Positions 4,046 through 57,396 of a stretch of DNA of 64,000 nucleotides are shown in pieces (positions within the stretch are counted from its first letter, which is position 1; each line of letters begins with the position of its first letter). Source of the stretch: Patescibacteria group bacterium (GTDB lineage: Bacteria > Patescibacteriota > Patescibacteriia > JAXHNJ01); contig JAXHNJ010000002.1 of the NCBI GenBank assembly GCA_034520665.1, positions 282,303 through 346,302 of the forward strand, given 5' to 3'. The notes under the pieces are model-generated. The model did not search any database. It saw nothing but the letters and a program-made list of their open reading frames with translations, and was not told the origin of the DNA. The position numbers and the translations under genes were made by a program.

Positions 4046-4884
4046 ATTTGCCTGATTGGATTAAAATAGGAAAATACGATAAAAAAGAATATTTAAAAAC
4101 TTTAAATATTATAAATGAAAATAAACTAACCACGGTTTGTTTGGAGGCAAATTGCCCCAACCGTTATGAATGTTTTGCTAATGGCACAGCCACTTTTATG
4201 ATTTTGGGTGATGTTTGTACCAGAAATTGTCGTTATTGTAATATAAAAAAAGGTCAACCTAAGGCACTTGATCCGACCGAGCCGGAAAAAATTTCGGTTG
4301 CCATTAAAAAGATGGGTTTAAAATATGCGGTGGTAACTTGCGTAACCAGAGATGATTTGCCAGATGGCGGCGCTGATCAATTTGCTAAAACGATCAAGAC
4401 AATTAAAAAAAATAATCCGGGTTGTAGGATGGAAGTTTTAATCTCTGACCTACAAGGTAATTGGCAAGCGCTTAAAAAAATAATCAAAGCCAAGCCGGAT
4501 GTAATAAATCATAATTTAGAAGCAGTTAAAGATATTTTTGCTTTAGTCAGACCCAAAGGTAATTATAAGTTATCTTTAAAACTTTTGAAAAAAATAAAAG
4601 AATTCGCACCGGAAATAAAAACAAAATCCGGTTTTATGCTTGGTCTTGGTGAGAATGACAAACAAATTGCCGAAACACTTAATGATTTAAAAAAAGGTGG
4701 CTGTGATATCGTAACCATTGGACAATATTTACAGCCGAGTCCGCAACATTTTGCAGTAAAAAAATATTATAATCCCGAAGAGTTTAAAAGGATAGAGTCT
4801 ATTGCTAAAAAAATCGGTATTAAACATGTTTCTGCCGGTCCTTTGGTTAGGAGTTCTTATCAAGCTAACATTATGTATAAATAA
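4042..4884 (+). CDS. lipA: Lipoyl synthase
   Basis: The auxiliary cluster motif CLEANCPNRYEC and the radical-SAM motif CTRNCRYC are both present. Confidence 0.9.
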   Translation: MNLPDWIKIGKYDKKEYLKTLNIINENKLTTVCLEANCPNRYECFANGTATFMILGDVCTRNCRYCNIKKGQPKALDPTEPEKISVAIKKMGLKYAVVTCVTRDDLPDGGADQFAKTIKTIKKNNPGCRMEVLISDLQGNWQALKKIIKAKPDVINHNLEAVKDIFALVRPKGNYKLSLKLLKKIKEFAPEIKTKSGFMLGLGENDKQIAETLNDLKKGGCDIVTIGQYLQPSPQHFAVKKYYNPEEFKRIESIAKKIGIKHVSAGPLVRSSYQANIMYK

Positions 4885-4888
4885 AAAT

Positions 4889-5644
4889 ATGAAAACCTGG
4901 AGACTTATAAAATCTATCACTGATAATGGCGCCAGACAGATGGCCATTGATGAAGCCATACTTACAGCACGAATAAAAAATAAAGTCCCCAATACTTTAC
5001 GCTTTTTTACTTGGAAACCGACCTGCGTAACAATCGGCTTTTTTCAAAATTTAGAAGAAGAGATCGATTTTATCAAAACTCGGTCTAGGGGCATAGACGT
5101 AGTTAGAAGATATACGGGCGGAGGCGCGGTTTTACATGAGCATGAACTAACTTATTCTCTAACCATCTCAGAAAAAGATGTTTCTTCTGATATAGTTGAA
5201 TCTTATAAAGAGATCTGCGCCGGAATAATTGAAGCCTTGTTTTCTCTTGGTATAAAAGCAGAATTCAAACCCATAAATGATATTATTGTTGGTAATAAAA
5301 AAATATCAGGCAATGCTCAGACTAGAAAGTCAGGCGTGGTGTTACAGCATGGTACAATACTTTTGGATCTGGATCTTAAAAAAATGTTTTCCCTGTTAAA
5401 GATCCCTGACGAAAAAATTAAGGATAAAATGATAAAAGCGGCCAAAGAGCGAGTAACCTCGTTAAAAAACGAACTAGGAAAAAGCGTTGCCAATAAGGAA
5501 ATAGAAAAGGCGCTTATTTATGGATTTGAAAAAATGTTTAATATAAAAACTGAAGTTGGAGAACTTACTCCCCAGGAATTAAAGCATGCCGAAAAATTAT
5601 ATAAAGAAAAGTATACTAATAATAAATGGACTAATTGGCGATAA
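4889..5644 (+). CDS. lplA: Lipoate-protein ligase, catalytic N-terminal domain (BPL/LPL)
   Basis: The motifs RRYTGGGAVLHEHELTYS and ISGNAQ...LQHGTILLDLDL are present. I place the start at ATG 4889, just after the lipA stop. The track's earlier start overlaps lipA. Confidence 0.8.
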   Translation: MKTWRLIKSITDNGARQMAIDEAILTARIKNKVPNTLRFFTWKPTCVTIGFFQNLEEEIDFIKTRSRGIDVVRRYTGGGAVLHEHELTYSLTISEKDVSSDIVESYKEICAGIIEALFSLGIKAEFKPINDIIVGNKKISGNAQTRKSGVVLQHGTILLDLDLKKMFSLLKIPDEKIKDKMIKAAKERVTSLKNELGKSVANKEIEKALIYGFEKMFNIKTEVGELTPQELKHAEKLYKEKYTNNKWTNWR

Positions 5645-5645
5645 T

Positions 5646-5918
5646 ATGAAAAAAATAATTTATAAAGCGCCTAACGGTAAGTTATTGCGCCTGCAACTTG
5701 ATGCGGAAGATAATATTATAAGGAATATAAAAATAGCCGGTGATTTTTTTATTTACCCGGAAGAAGCGATTTGTGAGATTGAAAAATTTTTAGTCGGAAA
5801 AAAAATTAATAATAATATAGAAAGTACGTTGAAGAAATTTTTATTAAACAACAATATAATTATAATAGGATTCAAACCGACAGATATTTTTAATGCACTA
5901 TCAAATAATAATAAATAA
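5646..5918 (+). CDS. Lipoate-protein ligase C-terminal domain as a separate polypeptide (LplB-like)
   Basis: The motifs YKAPNGKLLRLQLD and NIKIAGDFF match the LplA C-domain. The ATG lies 2 nt after the lplA stop. Confidence 0.65.
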   Translation: MKKIIYKAPNGKLLRLQLDAEDNIIRNIKIAGDFFIYPEEAICEIEKFLVGKKINNNIESTLKKFLLNNNIIIIGFKPTDIFNALSNNNK

Positions 5919-12115: not shown

Positions 12116-13084
12116 TTATTCAAATAAACCTTTAATTTTGTCATAAAATCGTTTTCGATACTCCTCTCTTCTATCATTTTCATGAAATTTTAAAACTGAA
12201 TCAGAAATAACTACCTTATTATTATCTTGATACATCACGCTATTTTTATTTTTTTCCATTTTTTTTCTTTGGCCATCCCTAATAAAATTATTCAGCCAGG
12301 GGCCTAAGTTAGGAATTAAAAATAAAGTTTCAAAGACACTCTTAACTAACGAGGTAAGACTGTCTTTTTTAATTATTTTTTTATTTTCAGATAAAAAAGC
12401 ATTAGGCAAAAATTCTTTTACCCATTTGTTTTCTTTTTGGATTTTTTTATGAAAATTAGCAGCATCGTAAAGAGGTGTTAATTGATCAACCCAAAAAGTA
12501 AAATAGGGGTCTTTATCTTGCAAAAGCAAAGGTTTAAAATCAAGGGCTTCACTACTTAGATAAAAACTCAAACAAATCTTGTTTTTTATTTTATCTTTAT
12601 ACCGTCTTAAGCCCAACATATGAACCAACCAAGTAACAAAAAAACGGGCTGTAAACAGATGGCCAGGTTCAGTGACTATAAAAAAATCAATATCACTTTC
12701 TTTTTTGGCGTTATCAAGAGCTAAATTATTGCAAACCGCTATATAATTAACAAAAGGGGCCATTTTTAAATAATTAACCGCTGTTTTGGCTTTTTCCCAT
12801 TTCTTTTTATCATAATCCCTTCTCTCTTTCCTGGTCTCTACAATCTCTCTTCGTCCTTTTAGAAAATAATAGCCTTCATCTTCTTCAATTATATTTTTCA
12901 ATTTTTCACTCATTTCCAAAACTTCAAGAACATCATTTAAATCTTTTTTAAAATCTTTTTCCTCTTTGTCAATATAAAGCCACCGCCAAATTTCTTCAGC
13001 GGTCAAAGGATAATCAAAAATATCATACCAACAGATAGTTTTGAGAATAGATTTTTCTATTTGACTAAATTTGTTATCTTCCAT
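12116..13084 (-). CDS. Hypothetical protein with a Pol-beta-type nucleotidyltransferase fold
   Basis: The nucleotidyltransferase-like S...DxD motif is present as KKESDIDFFIV. Confidence 0.4.
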   Translation of the reverse strand: MEDNKFSQIEKSILKTICWYDIFDYPLTAEEIWRWLYIDKEEKDFKKDLNDVLEVLEMSEKLKNIIEEDEGYYFLKGRREIVETRKERRDYDKKKWEKAKTAVNYLKMAPFVNYIAVCNNLALDNAKKESDIDFFIVTEPGHLFTARFFVTWLVHMLGLRRYKDKIKNKICLSFYLSSEALDFKPLLLQDKDPYFTFWVDQLTPLYDAANFHKKIQKENKWVKEFLPNAFLSENKKIIKKDSLTSLVKSVFETLFLIPNLGPWLNNFIRDGQRKKMEKNKNSVMYQDNNKVVISDSVLKFHENDRREEYRKRFYDKIKGLFE

Positions 13085-35372: not shown

Positions 35373-36863
35373 ATGAAGAATATAAAACAACTGGGCTTAG
35401 CTTTAACTACTATTATTTTAATTATTAGCTGCGTTCTAGCTATGAGTACATTAACTTATATTTTTATTCAAAGAATTAACAATTCTAACCAATCGGTTTC
35501 TTTAAGCAATATAGCTAACCAGTTCAGAGAAGATTGGCGCGGAGTTTTAAAAGTGTCAGCTTTTGAAGCAGATCCCTTAGAACAATATCTTTATAATTTA
35601 AAAATTGAGAAAAAAACAAATTCTAACGCAAACATAAAAAATAATATTAACACAAATATCTCTAATAATAACTCTAATACTAATGAAGAAATAAATATTA
35701 ATAGCAATAATAAAAATGTGAATAATAATATAAATTATAATAGCAACGCAAATATTAATTCAAATAATAATCTTAATCAAAATATTAATAATAATACTAA
35801 CTTAAATCAGAATCTAAATACAAACACCAACCAAAATATAAATGCTAACATTAACTATAATGTAAATGTTAATAGTAATAATAATATTAATCTAAACCAA
35901 AACTTAAACATAAATACTAATCAGAATACAAATCTAAACCAAAATGTAAATTTTAATAATAATGTAAATATAAATCTTAATTCTAATTTTAATCAAAACA
36001 TAAATAAAAACAATAATATAAACTCTAATCTTAATAATAATATTAATAAAAATTTAAACAATAATATAAATACAAATCTTAATGAAAATACCAACAAATC
36101 AGAAACGCCAGAAAGGCCAAATTCAATTACTAAAAAAGAGTGGTATAAAAATGTGAAAAATGGTACTTTAGTCTTTCAAGTCAATTGGTATTGCTCAGCT
36201 GCTGGTATGAAAATTTATTTTGATCAATCAATAAATCAAAATAGGGATATTGGTCTTTATCATGGCGATTGCACAAATCCTAGTGTTCAGGTAAAAGGTA
36301 ATTTTAAGCCAGTTAAATTAGAAGAGTATAAAAAAGGAAAACAAATTTCTTTCCGCTTAGAAAGCGATTTATACTCAACCAACAAAACTGTTCATACAAA
36401 CATTGAGGATAAATGTCATATTGACTATTTTCCTTTTTCCGGAAGAAAAGATGTCCCAGCTATCCAATTTACCTGCGACGACGGATATAATATGGGCCTT
36501 TGGGATGATATACAATTTACTGTATATGTTTTTCCTAAAGGTAAAAAAATTGATATCCCAGAAGTTATCACTCAAAAAGATATAGATACTGACGGAGATG
36601 GAATAACAGACTTAGAAGAGATTAAAATCGGCACTAAAAGAAGTCATTTTGATACTGATAATGATGGTTATTCAGATAAAACGGAAATAGATAAAGGTTA
36701 TAGCCCCTTAATTCCAGCTACTAAACCAAATCCAAACCCCGAAACATATGAAAAAAAATATTACGACGAAATCCCTGAAACAGAAATAAAAAGAGATGAT
36801 ATGGATTTAAAATATCCAAAAAAAGCTACTCCTACCACCCTTTATACAATAGAAGATCTATAA
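35373..36863 (+). CDS. Anchored protein with an extreme Asn-rich low-complexity region and C-terminal thrombospondin-type-3-like calcium-binding repeats
   Basis: It has an N-terminal TM helix. A ~160-residue N/I/L/Q-only tract is followed by DTDGDGITDLEE and DTDNDGYSDKTE. Confidence 0.6.
   Translation: MKNIKQLGLALTTIILIISCVLAMSTLTYIFIQRINNSNQSVSLSNIANQFREDWRGVLKVSAFEADPLEQYLYNLKIEKKTNSNANIKNNINTNISNNNSNTNEEININSNNKNVNNNINYNSNANINSNNNLNQNINNNTNLNQNLNTNTNQNINANINYNVNVNSNNNINLNQNLNINTNQNTNLNQNVNFNNNVNINLNSNFNQNINKNNNINSNLNNNINKNLNNNINTNLNENTNKSETPERPNSITKKEWYKNVKNGTLVFQVNWYCSAAGMKIYFDQSINQNRDIGLYHGDCTNPSVQVKGNFKPVKLEEYKKGKQISFRLESDLYSTNKTVHTNIEDKCHIDYFPFSGRKDVPAIQFTCDDGYNMGLWDDIQFTVYVFPKGKKIDIPEVITQKDIDTDGDGITDLEEIKIGTKRSHFDTDNDGYSDKTEIDKGYSPLIPATKPNPNPETYEKKYYDEIPETEIKRDDMDLKYPKKATPTTLYTIEDL
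35620..36110 (+). repeat. AAT/AAC-rich coding microsatellite-like region (Asn codon repeats)
   Basis: Visible tandem units such as aataataatattaat and aatcaaaat fill this stretch. Confidence 0.7.
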
Positions 36864-36886: not shown

Positions 36887-37414
36887 ATGTATAAATATTG
36901 CCCTCAGTGTAAAACTAAATTAGTCAAGAAAAATTTGCATACCAGCGATCCGGTCAGACTTTGCTGCCCTAGGTGCGGCTATGTTCAATACAATAATCCG
37001 GCTCCCACAGTCACCGGTCTTTTTAAAAAAGATAATAAATACTTATTTAGTCAGAGAGCTATTGAACCCTTAAAAAATTATTGGGATTTCCCAGGCGGTT
37101 TTATTGAGTCTTTTGAACCCCCTAAAAAGGCTCTAAAAAGAGAAATGAAAGAAGAATTAACCGTGGCCATAACTAAGGCTGATTTTTTCGGAGTTTATAT
37201 AGATAAATATTTTTATAACGAAAAAGACCAATCAACACTTAACCTTTATTATTTAGTAAAATATCAGGGCCACTTAAAACCCAAAGACGACGTTAAAGCC
37301 ATTGAATGGTTTACTTTAGATAATCTGCCAGAAAAAATCGCTTTTAAACATATCTATCAAGTAATTAAGGATTTAAAAAAATATGAATCAAAAACAATCA
37401 AAAAAAATAACTGA
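36887..37414 (+). CDS. NUDIX hydrolase with an N-terminal zinc ribbon (NudC-like architecture)
   Basis: Zinc-ribbon cysteines CPQC...CPRCG are followed by the Nudix box GGFIESFEPPKKALKREMKEEL. Confidence 0.75.
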   Translation: MYKYCPQCKTKLVKKNLHTSDPVRLCCPRCGYVQYNNPAPTVTGLFKKDNKYLFSQRAIEPLKNYWDFPGGFIESFEPPKKALKREMKEELTVAITKADFFGVYIDKYFYNEKDQSTLNLYYLVKYQGHLKPKDDVKAIEWFTLDNLPEKIAFKHIYQVIKDLKKYESKTIKKNN

Positions 37415-37988
37415 TTTCTTTTTTGAGCTTGGTATGCTCAAAAGGCAAAAACATTGTGGTTTTGCTTTAGCCGGCGTTAGTAACAATCTGCGTAGTTTAG
37501 CTGATCATACAGCTCGAGCAGCGGTCATGGCTTATATCTTGGCTGAACTGGAAGGAGTTAACCCAGAAAAAACAGCCACTATCTGCCTTATCCATGATTT
37601 TCCGGAAATGAGAATTGGTGACCATCATAAAATAGCTTCCCGCTACCTAAAAACTAAACCAGCCGAAAAACAAGCTTTTCTGGAACAGACCAAAGATTTA
37701 CCGGAAAAGGTAAAAAAAACCTGGCGAAAATACCATCAGGAACTGGAAAAAAGAAACACACTAGAAGGAGTAGTGGCTAAAGACGCTGACTGGCTGGAGC
37801 AGGCTGTTTCAGCCCGTGAATACATAGCCGAAGGCCACAAAGCCGCCCAAAACTGGATTGATAACGTCAGAAAAGCCTTGGAAACCCAATCAGCTAAAAA
37901 ATTGCTTAAAGAAATTGAAAAAATCGATCCGAGTAATTGGTGGCAAGGACTAAAAAAGATGACTTATAAAAAGTTAAAGAAACGTTGA
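37383..37988 (+). CDS. HD-domain phosphohydrolase (YfbR-like 5'-deoxynucleotidase family)
   Basis: The motifs HTARAAVMAYIL and LIHDFPEMRIGDHH are present. Confidence 0.7.
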   Translation: MNQKQSKKITDFFFELGMLKRQKHCGFALAGVSNNLRSLADHTARAAVMAYILAELEGVNPEKTATICLIHDFPEMRIGDHHKIASRYLKTKPAEKQAFLEQTKDLPEKVKKTWRKYHQELEKRNTLEGVVAKDADWLEQAVSAREYIAEGHKAAQNWIDNVRKALETQSAKKLLKEIEKIDPSNWWQGLKKMTYKKLKKR

Positions 37989-38043
37989 AGTCGTTGAAAT
38001 TATATAGCACTAGCAAAGCCATAGAATTTATTAGAAAAAATAA

Positions 38044-38540
38044 AAAAATATTGAATCAAAATTTAAGATTAATAATTTTTCTGAAATTAAAAAAAATCTC
38101 AGAAAAAATAAAACAGCCAAAAAATTAAATCAGGTTGACACTTATTTTATAGTCAAAAAGGGTCTTTTAAAAATTAGGGAAATTAATAAAAAATTTTTTG
38201 AATTAATTTTTTACCGACGCCCCGACAAAAAAATGGCTAAAACATCAAATTATAAAGTTATTAGCCTAAATAAAAATCAGGCTTAGAAATTAAAAAAATC
38301 TTAAAATTTAGTCTGGGAATTAAAAATATTATTAAAAAAATACGTTTTCTTTATCTTTATAAATATACCCGAATTCACTTAGATAATGTTACTGGCTTAG
38401 GAAAATTTATAGAACTGGAAACCGTGATAAAAAATATAACCGGCCAAAAGGCGAAAACTGAACATAAAGAAATAACAAAAATTCTAGAATTAAACCAAGA
38501 AAAAAGAATCAGCAAATCTTACTGCGAATTAAAAAAATAA
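38044..38540 (+). pseudogene. CYTH-domain (CyaB / triphosphate-tunnel metalloenzyme-like) gene, frameshifted and lacking a start codon
   Basis: Frame 1 (38044-38286) reads IESKFKINNFSEIKKNL...QVDTYFI...GLLKIREIN, a CYTH N-half. A +1 frame (38280-38540) reads ...IRFLYLYKYTRIHLDNVTGLGKFIELE...EKRISKSYCELKK, a CYTH C-half. TAA immediately precedes the first codon. Confidence 0.55.
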
Positions 38541-38653
38541 TACCATCCTTAAAAAAATTACTAACTCAATTAACTAATCAACTTCCGCCAAAGCTTTGCC
38601 TCGCGGCCTAGTAAGCGGATCGCCCTCTGGGCGAAATTAACCAATCAACTAAT

Positions 38654-39760
38654 TTGTCTTTTTCCATCGGTATTGTCGGCCTGCCCAATGTCGGTAAATC
38701 AACCCTTTTCAAGGCGCTGACTGAACAAACCATTGATATCCAAAACTATCCCTTTTGCACCATTGATCCCAATGTTGGTATTGTTAGCGTCCCTGATAAA
38801 AGGCTTAATAAATTAGCCCATATATACAAACCAGAAAAAGTTATTCCGGCTGTGGTTGAATTTGTCGATATTGCCGGTTTGGTTAAAGGGGCTTCCAAAG
38901 GAGAAGGGCTGGGCAATAAATTTTTAGAAAACATCCGCCAAGTCAGAGTCATCGCCCATGTGATCCGCTGTTTTGAAAATGATGATATTGTCCATGTCAG
39001 CGGCAAAATTGATCCAAAGGAAGATATTGAAATTATCGAAACTGAGCTGGCCTTGGCTGATTTAGAAACCGTGCAAAAAAGAAAAGAATCTCTGGAAAAA
39101 CAAATCAAATCTCAAGATAAAGAATTAGTTAAAAAGGTAAAAATTCTTGCTCCTTTGCTTGAGCGCCTGGAAAAAAGCCTTAGTCAGGGAGAACCAGCCA
39201 GAAGCATAACTTTTGATAAAGAGGCGGAAGAAGCGCTTCAAGAGCTTCAACTAATTACCCAAAAGAAACAGCTTTATTGCTGTAATGTTGATGAAAATAA
39301 TATTCAAGAAGAAAATGAATATGTAAAAATCGTGAGAAAATTAGCCAAAAAAAATGACTCTGAAGTCATAATTATTTCAGCTAAACTAGAAGCCGAAATC
39401 GCTGATTTATCATCAGAAAAAGAAAAAATTGATTTTCTTAAACAACTAGGAATTAATGAATCCGGCCTCGATAAGCTAATTAAAACCGGTTATCATCTGC
39501 TTAATTTCAGAACCTTTCTAACTGGCGGAGAAAAAGAAGTAAGAGCCTGGACATTTAAAAAAGGCTCTACGGCTCCACAAGCAGCCGGTATTATTCATAC
39601 TGATTTTCAAACCGGTTTTATTAAGGCCGAAGTTATAAGTTATCAGGATTTAATATCAGTCGGCTCTGAACTCAAGGCCAAAGAAAAGGGATTAATAAAA
39701 ATAGTCGGCAAAGAGTACGAGGTTCAGGACGGCGACGTGATGCATTTTCTTTTTCAATAA
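38654..39760 (+). CDS. ychF: Ribosome-binding ATPase YchF (Obg-like)
   Basis: It has a TTG start and the motifs IGIVGLPNVGKSTLF, DIAGLVKGAS and the C-terminal GDVMHF. Confidence 0.9.
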   Translation: MSFSIGIVGLPNVGKSTLFKALTEQTIDIQNYPFCTIDPNVGIVSVPDKRLNKLAHIYKPEKVIPAVVEFVDIAGLVKGASKGEGLGNKFLENIRQVRVIAHVIRCFENDDIVHVSGKIDPKEDIEIIETELALADLETVQKRKESLEKQIKSQDKELVKKVKILAPLLERLEKSLSQGEPARSITFDKEAEEALQELQLITQKKQLYCCNVDENNIQEENEYVKIVRKLAKKNDSEVIIISAKLEAEIADLSSEKEKIDFLKQLGINESGLDKLIKTGYHLLNFRTFLTGGEKEVRAWTFKKGSTAPQAAGIIHTDFQTGFIKAEVISYQDLISVGSELKAKEKGLIKIVGKEYEVQDGDVMHFLFQ

Positions 39761-39854
39761 AATTATCTTGACTTAATAAATACAATTTTATATATTTAAC
39801 CTTGGTGGCTTTTAAAAAAGCCGCTTTTTTTATTTGTTTTTGAAAAAATCACAA

Positions 39855-40482
39855 GATCGCACGCTTTCGCGTGGACACCACTTACTATTATTAAATCTAC
39901 AGCTCAGATAAAAAAAGGTTTGCGGAGCCCAGACGAAAGTCTGGCTATTAAATAATCAATTTTATGTTAATATCTTACCAAAATCGACCCCCACATATTT
40001 ATTCGGATAATTCATTTTATTTTTTAACTGCCAGAACTTTAAAAGGAATATATTTTTTTAATACTGATAGCAAGAAAAAAATACTACTAAATGTAATTAG
40101 AAAAGCTCTTGAAAGATATAATTGTGATTTATACGCCTGGGTAATTCTTTCAAATCATTATCATCTTTTATTAAAAATTAAATTAGGTAAAGAATTATCA
40201 AGCTTAATTAAAAATATCCATGCTAACAGTTCTCGTATATTAAATATATATCAAGCTTGTCCGAGTAGAAAGATTTGGTGGAATTATTGGGATAAATGCA
40301 TTGAAACACCAAAAAGTTATTACACTCATCTTAATTATATCCACCATAATCCAGTCAAACACGGCTATACAAAAAATATGAAAGATTATAAATTTTCCAG
40401 TTACAGACATTATTTAAAAACCCAAGGTAAGGAATGGCTTGAGGATTCATTTTGTGCTTACCCAGTTATTACAAAAAATTGA
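39855..40482 (+). mobile_element. IS200/IS605-family element with a solo Y1 (HUH) transposase and flanking tetraloop hairpins
   Basis: The tnpA gene is flanked upstream by the hairpins CACGC-TTTC-GCGTG and CCAGAC-GAAA-GTCTGG. The right end is not defined. Confidence 0.5.
39964..40482 (+). CDS. tnpA: IS200-like / REP-associated tyrosine transposase (Y1 HUH)
   Basis: It is 172 aa with the HUH motif NHYHLLL and C-terminal tyrosines (SSYRHY). Confidence 0.65.
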   Translation: MLISYQNRPPHIYSDNSFYFLTARTLKGIYFFNTDSKKKILLNVIRKALERYNCDLYAWVILSNHYHLLLKIKLGKELSSLIKNIHANSSRILNIYQACPSRKIWWNYWDKCIETPKSYYTHLNYIHHNPVKHGYTKNMKDYKFSSYRHYLKTQGKEWLEDSFCAYPVITKN

Positions 40483-48106: not shown

Positions 48107-50363
48107 TTTCTTCTTCCTCCTCTTCTTCAAAATCTTCTTGATTTTCTTCTTCCTGATTTTCATCAGAGTTCTCTACTGTTTCCTCGCCGGATAAAGTTTT
48201 ATCTTCCTTGTTTATTAAAACCTCGCGAGGCTTAGATCCATTTTGTGGTCCAATTATTCCTTTTTTCTCCAGAGAATCAAGTATTCGAGCAGCCCGAGCG
48301 TAGCCAATACGCAGACGCCTTTGTAAAAGCGAAGCCGAAGCTTTATTAGCCCTTAAAATCACTTCCTGAGCCTGAGGTAAAAGTTCATCATCACCTAAGT
48401 CCTCCATACTCGAACCTAAGGGAGCGGCCTGGGGTTTTTCCACTATTTCATCTTTGTAATCAACTTCTTTAATATTTTCTTTAACAAAATCAACTACTTT
48501 TTTAACCTCTTTTTCAGAAACATGAGAGCCTTGCAGACGCTTGGGCTGGGAAAGTTCTGAAGAGAGAAAAAGCATGTCCCCTTTACCCAATAATTTCTCA
48601 GCTCCAGACATATCAATAATAGTTCGAGAATCCACCCCCGAAGCCACATTAAAAGCAATACGAGCGGTAATATTAGCTTTAATTAAACCGGTCAAAACAT
48701 TAACTGACGGTCTTTGCGTAGCTAAAACCAGATGAATACCCACCGCTCGGGCCATCTGGGCCAAGCGGATAATAGCCGCTTCTACTTCTGAAGCTGCCAC
48801 AGCCATCAGATCTGCTAATTCATCAATAATTAAAACTATAAAAGGCATGCCATCATCTACTTCCCGATGATAAACATGAATATCCCGCTTACCGCTTTTG
48901 GAAAGGGTTTGAAAACGTTTTTCCATCTCCGCTACTAGCCAACGTAAAGCATTGATAGTTTTTTTAGTATCTGTAATCACAGGGGTTAATAAATAAGGGT
49001 TATCGTTATAAACATTTAACTCCACTCTTTTAGGATCGACTAAAATAAGTTTAAGGTCATCAGGAGAATTCTGATACATTAAGCTTAATATAATTGAATT
49101 AATACAAACACTCTTGCCTGATCCTGTAGCTCCAGCAATTAAAAGATGAGGCATCGGATCAAGACTAGGAATAACCGGCTTACCGGAAACATCCCGACCT
49201 AAAGCAAAACTGAGGTTTGACTTTGATTTTTTGAAATCTTTAGTATCAATTACATCACCCAAATTAACTAGAGCTACCGCCTGGTTAGGTACTTCAATAC
49301 CAACTAATGATTTACCTGGAATAGGCGCTTCAATTCTAATCGGATGGGCTGCCAAAGCCAAAGCAATGTCATTTTGCAGACTAGTTATCTGCGAAAGTTT
49401 AACTCCCTCGGTCGGCTTTAAGGTAAATTGCGTCACTGTCGGACCAACATTTACTTCCGCCATTTCCACTTCAATACCAAAGTTATCCAAAGTTTTTTTA
49501 ATCTTTGTTTTGTTAAGCTCTATATCACCACTTTTTGGCCGATTTGAAAAATTTTCAAGAAGACTGGTCGGAATTTTAATTTTCTGGCCATATTTTTTAA
49601 CTTTTTTCTTAAACAACCCACCTTGTTCTTTTTCTTCCTCTTTCTTGTCTGTTTTATCTTTTTCTTTATCATCAGATTCATCAGAAACAGATTCTTTTTC
49701 AGATTCCTCTTTGTCTTCTTCATCTTTTAACTTTTTTTTCGAAAAACTAGGATGATCATAAACTTCTTTTTCTTTTTTAAAACGGGAGAAAAATGAATTT
49801 AGGCGATAAAACCAGGAGGATAATTTATTTTTTTTCTCTGACAAATTCTTTAAAGAAGTATTAAACATTAAAAGTAAAGAGATAATAAAAGCAGCCAGAA
49901 GAACAATTAAGCTGGCCCAAAAACCCATAATTTTTTGTAAAGGATAGCTAAGAAGTAAGCCGGCATAGCCGCCACCAGCGCCCTCTGATATTCTTTCTAC
50001 AGCCGTTTCAAGATCCAGAAAAATGTGTAAGAGCCCGGAATAGCTTAAAATAAAGAAAAATAAACCTAAATAATTAATACTGCGAATAATATACTTTTCG
50101 GGTTTTAAAAGTAAAAATCCTAAAACCAGTAAAATTATGGGAAAGAAGTATTTACCCCAACCAAAAAAGTAACTTAAAACAGTATCAATAAAACCGCCAA
50201 AACTCCCGGCCACATTAAATAAACTGAGAATACTTAAAACGGCCACTGTAAATAAAACCACCACTACAATGCCGTGTCTGGCTTCTGGTTTTAAAAAGGA
50301 ATCTGTCTTTTCTTCCTTTTGTTTTTTTTCTTTTTTCTGGGATTTTTTCTTTTTTCTAGCCAT
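48093..50363 (-). CDS. ftsK: DNA translocase FtsK/SpoIIIE
   Basis: N-terminal TM helices and a Lys/Glu-rich linker precede the motor domain. The Walker A motif is GATGSGKS. The gamma domain reads LLQRRLRIGYARAARILD. The likely ATG (MARKKKK) is at ~50363. The track starts at an upstream GTG (50384). Confidence 0.9.
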   Translation of the reverse strand: MARKKKKSQKKEKKQKEEKTDSFLKPEARHGIVVVVLFTVAVLSILSLFNVAGSFGGFIDTVLSYFFGWGKYFFPIILLVLGFLLLKPEKYIIRSINYLGLFFFILSYSGLLHIFLDLETAVERISEGAGGGYAGLLLSYPLQKIMGFWASLIVLLAAFIISLLLMFNTSLKNLSEKKNKLSSWFYRLNSFFSRFKKEKEVYDHPSFSKKKLKDEEDKEESEKESVSDESDDKEKDKTDKKEEEKEQGGLFKKKVKKYGQKIKIPTSLLENFSNRPKSGDIELNKTKIKKTLDNFGIEVEMAEVNVGPTVTQFTLKPTEGVKLSQITSLQNDIALALAAHPIRIEAPIPGKSLVGIEVPNQAVALVNLGDVIDTKDFKKSKSNLSFALGRDVSGKPVIPSLDPMPHLLIAGATGSGKSVCINSIILSLMYQNSPDDLKLILVDPKRVELNVYNDNPYLLTPVITDTKKTINALRWLVAEMEKRFQTLSKSGKRDIHVYHREVDDGMPFIVLIIDELADLMAVAASEVEAAIIRLAQMARAVGIHLVLATQRPSVNVLTGLIKANITARIAFNVASGVDSRTIIDMSGAEKLLGKGDMLFLSSELSQPKRLQGSHVSEKEVKKVVDFVKENIKEVDYKDEIVEKPQAAPLGSSMEDLGDDELLPQAQEVILRANKASASLLQRRLRIGYARAARILDSLEKKGIIGPQNGSKPREVLINKEDKTLSGEETVENSDENQEEENQEDFEEEEEEENGRI

Positions 50364-50369
50364 ATGGTT

Positions 50370-50398
50370 CTTATATTTTACCACTTTTTGTCCCTCTT
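50370..50398 (-). promoter_or_regulatory. Putative ftsK promoter
   Basis: On the minus strand it reads TTGCCA-17 nt-TAAAAT, immediately upstream of the ftsK ATG. The same sequence is copied at 51826-51855. Confidence 0.45.
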
Positions 50399-51270: not shown

Positions 51271-51321
51271 AACTAAACTCCTTTTCTCAAAAGATGAAAA
51301 ATGAACTTTTCAAAGAACTAA

Positions 51322-51480
51322 TTTATAAAAAAGCCTCCAAAAGTGAGGCTTTCAATAATAATCCAAATTATGATGTGTCGGTTGCGCTACTTGCTTCTTG
51401 TAACCAATACTCTCTTTAGATAAGAAAGAAAAGCGCCCAAATTTTGATTACAATTCAAAGCCTCACTAGCTTTATTCTAA
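51322..51480 (-). ncRNA. Candidate structured leader or sRNA, copy B
   Basis: A TTGACA-17-TAAAAT promoter (51487-51515, minus strand) drives a conserved ~125 nt body. The terminator is AAAGCCTC-N7-GAGGCTTT plus TTTTTT. Confidence 0.4.
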
Positions 51481-51540
51481 CAATTTATTTTATTTCTTTT
51501 AAATTATTTTGTCAAATAAAAAGTATCATTAACCTAAAAA

Positions 51541-51565
51541 TAGGGCTAATATTAGCCCTATTTTA
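51541..51565 (-). terminator. Copy of the rpoC terminator palindrome
   Basis: The sequence AATAGGGCTAATATTAGCCCTATT is present. Confidence 0.5.
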
Positions 51566-51584
51566 TATATAAATATATTTTTTA

Positions 51585-51810
<226 letters not shown>

Positions 51811-52126
51811 CTAGCCATATGGTTCTTATATTTTACCACTTTTGTCCCTCTTGGCAATAAAAAAAGGTAATGTGCACAGACATATGGCGGTTTTCTAGGG
51901 TAAGTATTACCCTAGATAATATGTGTATAAATATGTTAAAAACAATTAAAGAGAAAAATTAAAACGTCTAAAACCTATTATTAAAAAGTTTAGGAAGATA
52001 AATAGCTAATTATTGAAATAGAAGTTAAAAATTTAATAATAATCAAATTAAGTTAATATACTAGAAAAATTAAGATACAAAATTAGCTTATAAAATATAT
52101 ATTATAATAATCTATTACATTATATT

Positions 52127-52433: not shown

Positions 52434-53159
52434 TTAATCGCCAAATATTATATCATCAGCCGCATGGGAACAGAGGCCACCGACTACTCCGGCAACAATA
52501 AGATTACCACCTGTTCCACTACCAGCTGCTGCTCCACTAGCCCCATCAACAACAACAGTAACGGTAAATCTAAGTAATCTCTTACCCCATCCTCTTAATA
52601 GATTACGACTATCAATTTTTATATTGGGGATTTCTTCAGCTGAATGACGAGTAAGCCAAAATTCAGCTGAGTGAATACTTATATCACATAAACTGTATAA
52701 TATTGTGCCTGGCTTAGGAGCTCCATACTTAGCACACATATTTTTGTAGATTAGATCTAAATTTACTGCTGTAGCCTCATTACTAAATCTATCCCACCAC
52801 TTATACTCTTCTGGAGATAGAATAGATTTTACTAATTCTATAGGGTCTTGTTTGGCCATATTACGTCCTCGCTCAAGAGCTTCTCGCACTTGCTCACGAG
52901 TCAAGGGATCCTGATTATACTTATCCGTAATTTTTTTAGCCTCTTGGTAAAGTATCTCCTCCTCCTCTAAGGCTGTGGTCTTCATAAGATTTGAAGAATT
53001 TTCATCAAGCTCATTATATACATTGGTAAGAAATTCATTATGAATTTCACCAATACCCCTGTTTGTAACATCAGCTTCCGGAGAAATTACATTTTCTCCT
53101 TCACATCCAAAAAGAAAAAATAAACTGAAAATTACAAAAACTAGACTAAGATGTTTCAT
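52434..53159 (-). CDS. Secreted lipoprotein (241 aa) with a C-terminal Gly-zipper-like hydrophobic segment, cassette 2
   Basis: It has the lipobox LFFLFGCEG. A GGAGGT RBS precedes the start. The C-terminus reads GASGAAAGSGTGGNLIVAGVVGGLCSHAADDIIFGD. Confidence 0.6.
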   Translation of the reverse strand: MKHLSLVFVIFSLFFLFGCEGENVISPEADVTNRGIGEIHNEFLTNVYNELDENSSNLMKTTALEEEEILYQEAKKITDKYNQDPLTREQVREALERGRNMAKQDPIELVKSILSPEEYKWWDRFSNEATAVNLDLIYKNMCAKYGAPKPGTILYSLCDISIHSAEFWLTRHSAEEIPNIKIDSRNLLRGWGKRLLRFTVTVVVDGASGAAAGSGTGGNLIVAGVVGGLCSHAADDIIFGD

Positions 53160-53269
53160 TTTTTACCTCCATAAAAAATGAATAATTAAACGAATTCATA
53201 ATTAAGAGATTCTCAGATATAAATCTCTATATCTAGAAAAATTTACCTCCTTCCTTTTTCAAAGTTCAA

Positions 53270-53433
53270 TGTTATAAAAAAGCCTCCAAAAGTGAGACTT
53301 TGAGCTGTAGTCAAGTATTTGAACTGGGTGTCGGTTGCGCTACTTGCTTCTTGTAACCAATACTCTCTTTAAATAAGAAAGAAAAGCGCCCAAATTTTGA
53401 TTACAATTCAAAGCCTCACTAGCTTTATTCTAA
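53270..53433 (-). ncRNA. Candidate structured leader or sRNA, copy A
   Basis: A TTGACA-17-TATAAT promoter (53440-53468, minus strand) drives the transcript. The 5' segment AGTGAGGCTTTGAA is complementary to the left arm of the 3' terminator hairpin (53277-53301), so it could act as an anti-terminator. Confidence 0.45.
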
Positions 53434-53483
53434 CAATTTATTATATTCCTCTAAACTAAAATTGTCAAATAGTTAATACACAT

Positions 53484-53515
53484 TAAATAAAAATAGGGCT
53501 AATATTAGCCCTATT
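53484..53515 (-). terminator. Intrinsic terminator of the rpoBC operon
   Basis: A perfect palindrome (AATAGGGCTAATATTAGCCCTATT) is followed by TTTTATTT on the minus strand, immediately after the rpoC stop. Confidence 0.75.
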
Positions 53516-53538
53516 TTATATATAAATATATTTTTTAT

Positions 53539-56500
53539 TTAAGTTTTACGATAGCCGGTACCAGCCGGAATTAATTTACCAATAATTACATTTTCTTTCA
53601 GGCCTCTGAGTTTATCAACCTTGCCAGTTATGGCTGCGTCAATTAATACCCGGGCTGTTTCCTGAAAAGAGGCTGCTGACAAAAAGCTTTCCGTACTCAA
53701 AGAAGCTTTGGTAATACCCAGTAATAAAGGTTTAACTTTTGCTGGTTGTTTATTTTCTTTTTCGGCTTTTTCATTTTCTTTACGTACGATATTTAAATCA
53801 GTTACTTCGCCAATCAACCGCTCCGTATCACCCGGATCTCTAACCAAAACACGGGAAAACATTTGTTTAACAATTACTTCCACATGTTTATTATTAAGTT
53901 TCTGACCTTGAGAAGAATATATATACTGAATTTCTTTCATAATATATTTTTGGGCCGCTTCACTTCCGGAAAGTCTATAATAATCTTTAAGATCAAGACT
54001 ACCTTCAGTTAACTGCTGTCCTGGAGTAACTAAATCTCCCTCTTTTATCCAAAGACCATGACCAACTGGCGGTACATACTCTTTAACTGAATCTTCTTCA
54101 TATTGTAAAATTATTTTTTTATCATCTTCAATTTTAATTACTCCATCATGCGAAGACTTTATTTTCTTTTTATTTTTTTCATATATTAAATCTTTAACTT
54201 TTACTTTATCACCGTCTTTTACTTTAAGATTATCCTTGTCAATCTTTTTTCTTTTCTTAAGCAATACTTCTTCTTTTTCTTCAGTATAATCAATTTTTAT
54301 TATTTTATTATCACCTTCCTCAGTTATATGAGCTACTCCTTTAACTTCTGAAATTACGGCCGCCTTTTTCACATGCCTAGCTTCAAATAATTCTTCCACC
54401 CGAGGCAGCCCCTGAGTAATATCCTGACCGGCTACACCGCCAGTGTGAAAAGTTCTCATAGTTAGCTGGGTACCTGGTTCACCAATACTTTGTGCCGCTA
54501 TAATACCGACAGCCGTACCAATTTCAACCAACTTATTATAAGACAAATCATAACCATAGCATTTCTGACAGACACCTCTTTGCGCCTTACAAGTTAGAAG
54601 GCTACGAATATGTATTTTTTCGGGATCAGCTTTTTTAATTTTTTCTGCTTCTTTTTCATTAATCAAAGTATTTTTCTTTACTACTACTTTTTTTGTCTTG
54701 GGATTTTTAACATCCTTCAGCAAATAACGTCCTAAAGCTCTTTCAGATAAATTTCCTCCCATTTCTTCCGCTTCTTCTTTGGTTATTATTAAACCTTCCT
54801 TATCTTTACAATCTTTTTCATTAACCACAATCTCCTGCGCTACATCAATTAAACGACGGGTCAAATAACCCGCATTAGCTGTCCGAAGAGCTGTATCTGA
54901 TAGTCCCTTCCTAGCCCCATGAGTAGAAATAAAATATTCCAAAACATCAAAGCCCACTTTAAAATTACCCTTAACTGGTAATTCAATAGTTTCACCAGCC
55001 GGATTAGTCACCAGACCTTTCATACCCATCATCTGGGTTATCTGCCCCCAGGAACCGCGAGAACCAGATTCAATCATAGCATAAACTGGACCAAATTTAT
55101 CCAAAGATTCCTTACAAACTTCCTGTATATTTTCTTTGGTTTTAGCCCAATTTTCAATCACTTTTATCTGCCTTTCTCTATCTGTTAAAAGACCAGCTTT
55201 ATAATGTTCTTCAATGCCTTTGACTTTATCTTCCGCTTCTTCAATCAATTCCTGCTTTTTTTCAGCTTCAACTAAATCATCCATACCCCAAGAAATACCA
55301 GAACGAGTAAGATATTCAAAAGAAAACTCTTTAATATTATCTAAAAGCACAACTGTCTTTTCACGACCTAATATAGATATAGCCTCTGAAATTAAATTAG
55401 AAAGCTTCTTTTTGTTCATAACTTCATTAATGTATTGAAGTTTTTTCGGCAAAATAGAATTAAATATAACACGACCAACCGTGGTTTCTACTAATTTAGT
55501 GTTTATAAGTACTTTGATTGTTTCATGAAAATGAATTTTATCAATTTCATAAGCTAACAAAGCTTCTTCTTTTGAAGAATAATGGTTAATTTTCTTCTTG
55601 GCTTTCTTTTTTATAGTAAGATAGTAACAGCCCAAAACAATATCCTGGGAAGGAGTAGTTACTGGTGAGCCAGTAGCCGGTTTTAATAAATTATTAGTAG
55701 AGAGCATTATATTTTTTGCTTCCTTTTTGGCTTGTTCGGTTAAAGGCAGATGAACAGCCATTTGATCACCGTCAAAATCAGCATTAAAAGCGGCACAAAC
55801 TAAAGGATGTATTTGAATAGCTTTACCTTCTATTAATATTGGCTGAAAGGCCTGAATACCTAAACGGTGAAGAGTTGGAGCACGATTTAATAAAACATAA
55901 GCATCTTTTATTACTTCTTCTAAAATATCCCAAACCTCCGGACGATCAGCTTCAATAAAGCGTCCAGCTGAACGAACATTATGCACATATTCTCTTTTTA
56001 TCAATTGAGAAATAACAAAAGGCCTAAATAATTCCAAAGCCATATGCTTGGGAATACCACATTGGTTTAATTTTAAGTGTGGTCCAATAACAATAACAGA
56101 ACGGCCGGAATAATCAACACGTTTACCTAATAAGTTTTGGCGAAAACGACCTTGCTTACCTTTTAGAACATCGGCAATTGATTTAAGAGTTCTTTTCTGT
56201 CCAGTAGAAGCAGTTACCGTTTTACCTTTTCTAGCTCCGTTATCAATCAGAGCATCAACGGCTTCCTGTAGCATTCTTTTTTCGTTACGACGTATCACTT
56301 CCGGAGCATTTAATTCAATTAATTTTTTCAGACGATTATTACGATTTATCACCCTTCGATATAAGTCATTTAGGTCAGAAGTAGCAAAGCGACCACCGTC
56401 AAGCTGTACCATTGGTCTTAAGTCCGGCGGAATAATGGGAACAACGGTTAATATCATCCATTCTGGTTTTATATTATTTTCTTTTAAATTTTTAAATAAT

Positions 56501-57396
56501 CTTAACCTTCTAGAAATTTTCTTTTTCTTATTTTTAGCTGCTCCTTCAAATTCATCTTCTAACTCTTTTATCAGTTTATCTAAATCTATTTCTTTAAGAA
56601 GTTTTTGTAGAGCTTCAGCACCAATACCCGCCTCAAAAACATGGCCATATTTTATAGATAAATCCTGATATTTATTTTCCGAAATTATAAGTTTTGGCTC
56701 TAATTCTTTTAATTCTTTTTTCGCTAAATCGACAGTTTCTTCCAAGCTTCTTAATTCTTCTTTTTTGGCTTCAGCGTTAGCCTTTAATTCTTCAGAGGTT
56801 TTTTCTTCAAGTTGTTTCTTTTTTTCTTCATCATCCGTTTTTGTAATTTCTTCATTATTAGTTTGTTTAATTTTTTGGCGGCGTCTTTTGAATTCTTCTT
56901 CAATTTTCTTAAGCTTGCCCTGATATTCCTTATCAATTTGTTCCAGGGTTTCCTCTCTGGCATTTTCGTCCACAGAAGTAATAATAAAATTAGCAAAATA
57001 AACTACTTTTTCCAGATTCTGTATAGAAAGATTAAGGACTAGACCAATCTTTGAAGGTACACCACGTAAAAACCAAATATGTGAAGTCGGAGCCGCTAAT
57101 TTAATATGACCCATTCTCTCTCTTCTTACTATTGATCGAGTTACTTCCACTCCGCACTTATCACAGACTATACCTTTGTAACGAATTTTTTTATATTTTC
57201 CGCAATAACATTGCCAATCTTTGGTTGGTCCAAAAATTCTTTCACAGAAAAGACCGTCTTTTTCTGGTTTTTGAGTCCGGTAATTAATAGTTTCTGGCCG
57301 TGTAACTTCCCCATGAGACCAGCCTAAAATTTCTTCTGGTGAAGCCAGTTTTAATCTTATTGCTTTAAAGTTTAAATTTTTTGCTTCCGGTATCAT
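53539..57396 (-). CDS. rpoC: DNA-directed RNA polymerase subunit beta'
   Basis: It is 1285 aa with the zinc-finger cysteines and the NADFDGD catalytic motif. Confidence 0.97.
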   Translation of the reverse strand: MIPEAKNLNFKAIRLKLASPEEILGWSHGEVTRPETINYRTQKPEKDGLFCERIFGPTKDWQCYCGKYKKIRYKGIVCDKCGVEVTRSIVRRERMGHIKLAAPTSHIWFLRGVPSKIGLVLNLSIQNLEKVVYFANFIITSVDENAREETLEQIDKEYQGKLKKIEEEFKRRRQKIKQTNNEEITKTDDEEKKKQLEEKTSEELKANAEAKKEELRSLEETVDLAKKELKELEPKLIISENKYQDLSIKYGHVFEAGIGAEALQKLLKEIDLDKLIKELEDEFEGAAKNKKKKISRRLRLFKNLKENNIKPEWMILTVVPIIPPDLRPMVQLDGGRFATSDLNDLYRRVINRNNRLKKLIELNAPEVIRRNEKRMLQEAVDALIDNGARKGKTVTASTGQKRTLKSIADVLKGKQGRFRQNLLGKRVDYSGRSVIVIGPHLKLNQCGIPKHMALELFRPFVISQLIKREYVHNVRSAGRFIEADRPEVWDILEEVIKDAYVLLNRAPTLHRLGIQAFQPILIEGKAIQIHPLVCAAFNADFDGDQMAVHLPLTEQAKKEAKNIMLSTNNLLKPATGSPVTTPSQDIVLGCYYLTIKKKAKKKINHYSSKEEALLAYEIDKIHFHETIKVLINTKLVETTVGRVIFNSILPKKLQYINEVMNKKKLSNLISEAISILGREKTVVLLDNIKEFSFEYLTRSGISWGMDDLVEAEKKQELIEEAEDKVKGIEEHYKAGLLTDRERQIKVIENWAKTKENIQEVCKESLDKFGPVYAMIESGSRGSWGQITQMMGMKGLVTNPAGETIELPVKGNFKVGFDVLEYFISTHGARKGLSDTALRTANAGYLTRRLIDVAQEIVVNEKDCKDKEGLIITKEEAEEMGGNLSERALGRYLLKDVKNPKTKKVVVKKNTLINEKEAEKIKKADPEKIHIRSLLTCKAQRGVCQKCYGYDLSYNKLVEIGTAVGIIAAQSIGEPGTQLTMRTFHTGGVAGQDITQGLPRVEELFEARHVKKAAVISEVKGVAHITEEGDNKIIKIDYTEEKEEVLLKKRKKIDKDNLKVKDGDKVKVKDLIYEKNKKKIKSSHDGVIKIEDDKKIILQYEEDSVKEYVPPVGHGLWIKEGDLVTPGQQLTEGSLDLKDYYRLSGSEAAQKYIMKEIQYIYSSQGQKLNNKHVEVIVKQMFSRVLVRDPGDTERLIGEVTDLNIVRKENEKAEKENKQPAKVKPLLLGITKASLSTESFLSAASFQETARVLIDAAITGKVDKLRGLKENVIIGKLIPAGTGYRKT

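Follow-up and report, generated by a model that had tools for sequence, protein, structure and literature searches.

Introduction

The closest described relatives of the gene discussed here are the CYTH/TTM proteins (Pfam PF01928; PDB 2dc4, 1yem and SaTTM, 7ns8) and, among them, the class IV adenylate cyclases of the CyaB type (YpAC-IV, PDB 3n0y and 2fjt). Triphosphatase activity in the family needs ExExK, the N-terminal hallmark motif, together with ExE and DxY; true class IV cyclases need HFxxxxExExK, that is, HF four residues before ExExK; and thiamine triphosphatases need WxRxR (PMC8233210). Here we analyse a stretch of 64,000 nucleotides (the window) from a Patescibacteria group bacterium (GenBank assembly GCA_034520665.1, contig JAXHNJ010000002.1, positions 282,303 to 346,302), in which the remains of a CYTH gene lie at 38040–38540 on the forward strand, between an HD phosphohydrolase gene and ychF. 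The remnant is very probably a genuine and recently inactivated pseudogene, the outcome of ordinary gene loss, and its adjacency to a Nudix and an HD gene would be inherited without these forming a module.

The subfamily to which the gene belonged resembles the CYTH/TTM proteins, a likeness known here from sequence profiles, in that it matches the domain over its full length as a single domain of ~168 residues and conserves DxY, ExE and the tunnel's basic K/R residues. It differs in its hallmark motif, which is N-I-E-x-K and not ExExK, and the copy in the window differs further in being dead, with its start lost and two frameshifts. With CyaB it has the fold family in common, and a profile of the subfamily matches 3n0y with E = 1.8e-12; however, the score against the NCBIfam cyaB model TIGR00318 is 37.4 bits, under the equivalog cutoff of 57.95, and the HFxxxxExExK extension is impossible in this subfamily. 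The state of the gene is that of other bacterial pseudogenes in reduced genomes, being a short, non-essential gene with several small lesions, intact neighbours and a patchy presence in relatives. Only the compensatory pair of +1 and −1 indels sets it apart from typical cases.

Results and Discussion

A CYTH gene in two reading frames

The HD gene and ychF are separated on the forward strand by a gap of 665 nt without a long open reading frame (ORF), and it is this gap that holds the remnant. The first-pass annotation of the window had read the two halves of a CYTH protein here in two frames, with a TAA ahead of the first codon, and both observations are borne out. The N-terminal half (KNIESKFKI...QVDTYFIVKKGLLKIREIN...SLNKNQA) is in frame 1 at 38044–38283 (+), begins directly after a TAA at 38041–38043 and is followed by a TAG at 38284–38286. 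The C-terminal half (EIKKILKF...HLDNVTGLGKFIELE...KSYCELKK) is in frame 0 at 38286–38540 (+), including its TAA at 38538–38540; this frame is open from 38274, and the homology of its translation (...EIKKILKF...RIHLDNVTGLGKFIELETV...KSYCELKK) covers 38286–38537. Each half was identified by translation, Pfam and tblastn. The pseudogene as a whole extends from a degenerate start, ATA, at 38040 to the original TAA stop, and was delimited from Pfam, the identity to its best homologue and a DNA alignment to the contig encoding that homologue.

A profile search with the conceptual fusion of the two frames finds CYTH homology, as the annotation had proposed. The fusion matches Pfam CYTH (PF01928) with 44.6 bits (E = 1.8e-11) over positions 2–179 of the 179 in the profile, where the gathering score is 23.2. 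Taken alone, the N-terminal half scores 17.9 bits (profile 2–72) and the C-terminal half 28.0 bits (profile 99–179). Eight homologues were found in the protein database, all of them intact, 168–189 residues long and with PF01928; the best, P0001, has 168 residues and is 80% identical at 100% coverage. Residues 2–106 of P0001 match the N-terminal half in tblastn (E = 7.5e-39) and residues 85–168 match the C-terminal half in the other frame (E = 4.8e-35), and the same search with P0001 found no second CYTH copy in the window. Searched against the PDB, the subfamily profile finds the CYTH/TTM structures 2dc4, 3n0y, 1yem, 2fjt and 7ns8 with E values between 4e-15 and 1e-10, and also 2een and 2aca. 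An ORF with a TTG start at 37985–38128, overlapping the HD stop, was considered as an N-terminal extension of the protein and rejected, as this region carries an 18-nt indel in L001, the contig that encodes P0001, and is non-coding there.

Lesions relative to intact orthologues

The lesions were defined by DNA alignment to L001, the JGI contig that encodes P0001, and by codon-level comparison with the loci L001, L002, L009 and L010. In all four of these relatives CYTH is a single intact ORF at the same locus, starting with ATG, AAA or AAG, and AAC. Set against these orthologues the window has no CYTH ORF with a start, in agreement with the proposal that the gene is decaying as a frameshifted pseudogene.

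Lesion 1, at 38040–38049 (+), is seen in the alignment with the four relatives, where the window has ATAAAAAAAT and the others have ATGAAAAAC or ATGAAGAAC. The 5′ end now reads ATA AAA AAA T, which corresponds to loss of the start by a G to A substitution, the gain of one A (making a run of seven, A7) and a silent C to T change. It is because of the inserted A that the N-terminal half is in frame 1, with the TAA at 38041–38043 ahead of it. Lesion 2, at 38281–38286 (+), is found by alignment to L001 and is a deletion of 1 nt that creates the in-frame TAG at 38284–38286 and puts the remainder in frame 0. L001 has CAG TCT AAA GAA ATT where the window has CAG GCT-TA GAA ATT, which places the deletion within 38281–38285; the interval in which the frames can switch, set by the stops in both, is 38274–38283. 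The DNA and protein alignments also contain an in-frame deletion of 6 nt relative to L001, between 38108 and 38109 (+), by which two codons, Ile-Lys, are lost.

The first-pass annotation had located the switch of frame near 38278–38286 in an A-run. The position is to be corrected to the intervals given above, and the A-run does not hold: the run of five at 38272–38276 has the same length in the intact orthologue, so that lesion 2 lies outside any such run. The +1 and −1 indels cancel, which returns the C-terminal half to the frame set by the old start at 38040. Reassignment of a stop codon was rejected as an explanation, since the halves are in different frames and reading through the TAA or the TAG would be of no help. 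Since none of the frames can be read from a usable start across the entire domain, the locus can no longer yield a CYTH protein.

Age of the loss

The remnant retains all 28 residues on which the eight intact homologues agree, and 46 of the 49 that are invariant in the four closest; the three lost are Met1, N111Y and I148T. Measured over the whole gene against L001, dN/dS is 0.22 for CYTH, 0.08 for HD and 0.10 for YchF. When L002, L009 and L010 serve as outgroups, the branch to the window receives 6 amino-acid changes and that to L001 receives 9, so that there is no excess on the former. The retention of the invariant residues, the dN/dS of 0.22 and the 6 changes against 9 indicate that the inactivation is recent. 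A further locus, L088, whose HD protein is 72% identical, lacks CYTH: downstream of its HD gene come a hairpin and a gene in convergent orientation. Because of this absence after the HD gene, CYTH appears dispensable in the group.

Artefact, recoding or gene loss

A second assembly covers the region. The Logan assembly of SRR26473340 contains a contig, recovered via the exact YchF and Nudix proteins, that is identical to the window at 13,003 of 13,003 positions, the whole remnant and both lesions included, and that ends at position 39889 of the window. The HD protein had no exact match when looked up, although this contig encodes it, and an exact scan of metagenome contigs with a 23-mer common to the window and L001 gave none either. 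The window has 182 homopolymers (at least 7 A/T or at least 6 G/C) and about 55 other ORFs of at least 90 residues, which cover 86% of it. No other broken gene was found among those examined, where the candidates checked have full-length domain architectures. A seemingly frameshifted LplA at 4802–5918, taken up as a sign of error-prone sequence, was rejected because two genes are present, the second having its ATG two bases after the TAA of the first. LplA, the lipoate-protein ligase, is naturally split here into a catalytic domain at 4802–5644 (+) and a C-terminal domain at ~5646–5918 (+) with its own ATG.

The lesions might belong to the sequence and not to the organism, the gene being intact and the indels being consensus errors in an AT-rich, homopolymer-rich region. 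Lesion 1 is in an A7 run adjoining an A6 run, the remnant has a GC content of only 21–26% and the protein is otherwise almost perfectly conserved, all of which would suit such an error; but the two assemblies agree at every base over 13 kb, lesion 2 is outside a homopolymer and close to an A5 run that is the same in the orthologue, and the loss of the start is a substitution and not an indel. Moreover, the long homopolymers have left no further frameshifted gene in ~55 kb of coding sequence, and for two random indels both to fall in one 0.5-kb gene the chance is ~1%. A start substitution and two indels confined to one 0.5-kb gene do not fit homopolymer sequencing error. Since the second assembly is identical and no other examined gene is broken despite the 182 homopolymers, we consider the sequencing error raised in the first-pass annotation unlikely.

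A different possibility is that the gene is live and is recoded, through a non-ATG start together with programmed ribosomal frameshifting or with transcriptional slippage at A-runs. In AT-rich endosymbionts such slippage is known to restore the output of frameshifted genes, and the compensatory +1 and then −1 indels, the C-terminal half in frame with the old start at 38040, the A7 run right after that start and the intactness of every invariant residue all speak for recoding. In its most specific form, which we regard as having very little chance of being correct, the broken gene would still be expressed: initiation at or near the old start (ATA at 38040 or ATT at 38050), slippage on the A7 run and a second shift near 38274–38283 would together restore a full-length enzyme. 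Both the exact compensation of the indels and the full preservation of the catalytic residues would then point to recoding as what keeps the gene alive in a reduced, AT-rich genome. However, recoding would depend on three separate non-standard events. No ATG, GTG or TTG opens the frame of the N-terminal half after the TAA at 38041–38043; there is no X_XXY_YYZ heptamer at the second shift site (38274–38283), where the sequence, AAATAAAAATCAG, is the same in the unshifted orthologue; and the genes of L001, L002, L009 and L010 are plain single ORFs, without a conserved recoding signal. Given the intact single ORFs of four relatives and the loss of every usable start codon at this locus, the programmed frameshift that had been suggested is improbable, and recoding of either kind is to be seen as highly unlikely.

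Some points do weigh against genuine and recent loss of the gene. The +1 and −1 indels compensate exactly, which could be chance, for which the prior is ~1 in 3. Three disabling changes accompanied by hardly any excess of amino-acid substitutions are a somewhat unusual mix, in numbers that are too small to test. The Logan contig and the window probably share reads, so that their identity excludes an artefact of the assembler but not a systematic read error.

Gene order around CYTH and the proposed module

The order of genes in the window is SHMT-FolD-(N-rich protein)-Nudix-HD-ψCYTH-YchF. The Nudix gene, at 36887–37414 (+), is an intact ORF encoding a zinc-ribbon NUDIX hydrolase of 175 residues, with Pfam scores of 60.4 bits for NUDIX and 26.4 bits for Zn_ribbon_Nudix. 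The Nudix box, GGFIESFEPPKKALKREMKEELTV, is directly readable in it, and it is 66% identical to the orthologue in L002. The HD gene, at 37383–37988 (+), is likewise intact and encodes a phosphohydrolase of 201 residues that scores 67.1 bits for HD_3 and 32.3 bits for YfbR-like. These assignments, and the 32-nt overlap of the two genes, are as the annotation had them; the HD start and with it the overlap are taken to be real because the N-terminus of the HD protein is conserved in L009 and L010. Downstream, ychF at 38654–39760 (+), an intact ORF with a TTG start, encodes 368 residues and is the downstream neighbour within the clade. The protein is 85% identical to that of L001, and MMR_HSR1 and YchF-GTPase_C are annotated for it on the identical Logan contig.

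HD_3/YfbR-like proteins are a family of 5′-deoxynucleotidases, which act on monophosphates and are not polyphosphate hydrolases. The HD protein of the window resembles the YfbR-like enzymes in its matches to both models and in keeping the H...HD...D residues, but it scores 23 bits against the NCBIfam 5′-deoxynucleotidase model, under the equivalog cutoff of 122, and differs from them also in that in CPR genomes it usually adjoins glyA and folD. Of 61 metagenome loci, 22 have the HD_3/YfbR-like gene beside glyA (SHMT), usually with folD. That nucleoside polyphosphates are the substrates of all three families is therefore not upheld for HD. The glyA/folD linkage, seen on Patescibacteria metagenome contigs among the loci L089–L140, hints at deoxynucleotide or thymidylate metabolism and not at signalling.

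Close relatives differ in which of the genes they have. The relatives carry the labels Patescibacteria or Parcubacteria. L001 has HD-CYTH-YchF; L002–L008 have SHMT-FolD-Nudix-CYTH-YchF, without HD; L009 and L089 have SHMT-FolD-HD-CYTH-YchF, without Nudix; and L010, also without Nudix, has SHMT-FolD-HD-CYTH with YchF ~580 nt further downstream. For a wider comparison, the nearest upstream and downstream ORFs of CYTH-subfamily genes recovered from genome contigs were scanned against Pfam; the locus search was built on four sequences, and the lesioned copy of the window itself is beyond the reach of the patterns it used (M[KR]NIE..., G[RH]LK...). The upstream neighbour, at 77 loci, is GreA in 15, prephenate dehydrogenase in 12, radical SAM in 12, HD_3 in 2 and NUDIX in 1. 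The downstream neighbour, at 72 loci, is a class-V aminotransferase in 11 and YchF in 2. In other Patescibacteria (L012, L013, L015, L021, L023, L026 and others) a radical SAM gene of ~270 residues is directly upstream of CYTH on the same strand, often with an overlap of a few bases or 0–11 nt away, and recurs as a partner more often than Nudix or HD does.

These counts bear on the proposal that Nudix, HD and CYTH form an operon for the turnover of signalling nucleotides, from which CYTH would now be being lost as redundant with the other two. All of the genes share one orientation and lie close together, with Nudix and HD overlapping, there is no terminator-like site before the end of ychF, and within the clade CYTH always adjoins Nudix and/or HD upstream of ychF. 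Nevertheless, Nudix and HD are each missing in some close relatives, which have Nudix-CYTH, HD-CYTH or HD without CYTH; outside the clade the neighbours of CYTH differ, as the low counts of NUDIX, HD_3 and YchF show; glyA/folD are the recurrent partners of the HD family, which consists of 5′-nucleotidases; and PADLOC yields nothing but a match to a generic Nudix model and finds no defence system. We rate a functional operon of this kind as improbable. On the gene orders compared, the Nudix-HD-CYTH adjacency is a local arrangement inherited in a narrow clade and not a conserved functional module.

The ancestral enzyme

At the site of ExExK the window has N-I-E-S-K and the eight intact homologues have N-I-E-x-K, so that the first Glu is replaced by Asn throughout the subfamily, whilst the second Glu and the Lys of the hallmark motif are invariant in the eight. 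DxY (as D-T-Y) and ExE (as E-L-E) are invariant in the family and kept in the remnant. There is no HF motif before the ExExK site; the orthologues start M-K-N-I-E, two residues ahead of the motif, which leaves no room for one. Nor is there a WxRxR, the corresponding segment being G-[RHL]-L-K-[IL]-R (L-K-I-R in the window), without Trp. These motifs make a TTM-type hydrolase of triphosphate or polyphosphate the most likely ancestral enzyme, ahead of an adenylate cyclase. The CYTH subfamily with the invariant N-I-E-x-K (L008–L087) spans Patescibacteria, Poribacteria, Bacteroidota, Ignavibacteria, Planctomycetota and others.

Other features of the window

Between the CYTH stop and ychF, at 38583–38635 (+), is a GC-rich segment of ~55 nt that is missing from the orthologous spacer of L001. 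It occurs once in the window and folds better than 200 of 200 shuffled sequences (z = −3.07); Rfam, searched over 37900–38750 with E up to 1, gave no match, this segment included. A terminator-like hairpin followed by a T-run lies 3′ of ychF at 39804–39825 (+). Rfam reports a "Histone3 3′ UTR stem-loop" on the opposite strand at 39782–39827 (−), with 37.8 bits against a gathering score of 34; this assignment is almost certainly false, since the site coincides with the hairpin. Directly after the hairpin, at 39964–40482 (+), is an IS200/Y1 transposase-like gene (Pfam Y1_Tnp, 37.4 bits), and the break of the Logan contig just before it, at 39889, suggests that this gene is repeated in the genome.

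On the other side of the cluster, between folD and the Nudix gene, 35373–36863 (+) encodes a protein of 496 residues that contains bacterial TSP3 repeats and a low-complexity region very rich in Asn. The GC content of its gene goes down to 14%. L002 lacks the gene at this position, and L088 has it upstream of HD.

Further along, the last 53 codons of rpoC (53539–57396, −) are duplicated as a stray ORF at 51586–51747, with 98% protein identity. A direct repeat of ~300–450 nt (51307–51750 and 53256–53700; ~93% identity, ~1953 nt spacing) also covers the region downstream of rpoC. An ORF of 241 residues between the repeat copies, at 52434–53159, has no Pfam match. A perfect repeat of 44 nt (50345–50388 and 51800–51843) joins the ftsK start region to 51800–51843. 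The 3′ end of rpoC looks like the site of an insertion or a segmental duplication.

Conclusions

The events at this locus may be put together as follows. The host is one of the uncultured Patescibacteria (CPR), and its ancestor would have had a small, single-domain CYTH gene of ~168 codons, starting MKNIESKF, between the HD gene and ychF. In the lineage of the window the ATG would have become ATA, one A would have been gained just past the start, and one base would have been lost 240 nt downstream. Transcription probably still passes through the remnant, which would be a spacer within a Nudix-HD-(remnant)-ychF transcript; we infer this because no terminator-like site, in a scan from the HD gene to ychF, separates the two.

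The 665-nt "intergenic" gap should thus be annotated as a CYTH pseudogene, and no CYTH or "adenylate cyclase" function should be credited to the organism. The attractive reading of the cluster as a nucleotide-polyphosphate module rests on inherited gene order and not on functional linkage. The locus is also a modest, dated case of gene loss under way in one lineage of Patescibacteria: a relative with an 80% identical CYTH protein still has the whole gene, and another has none.

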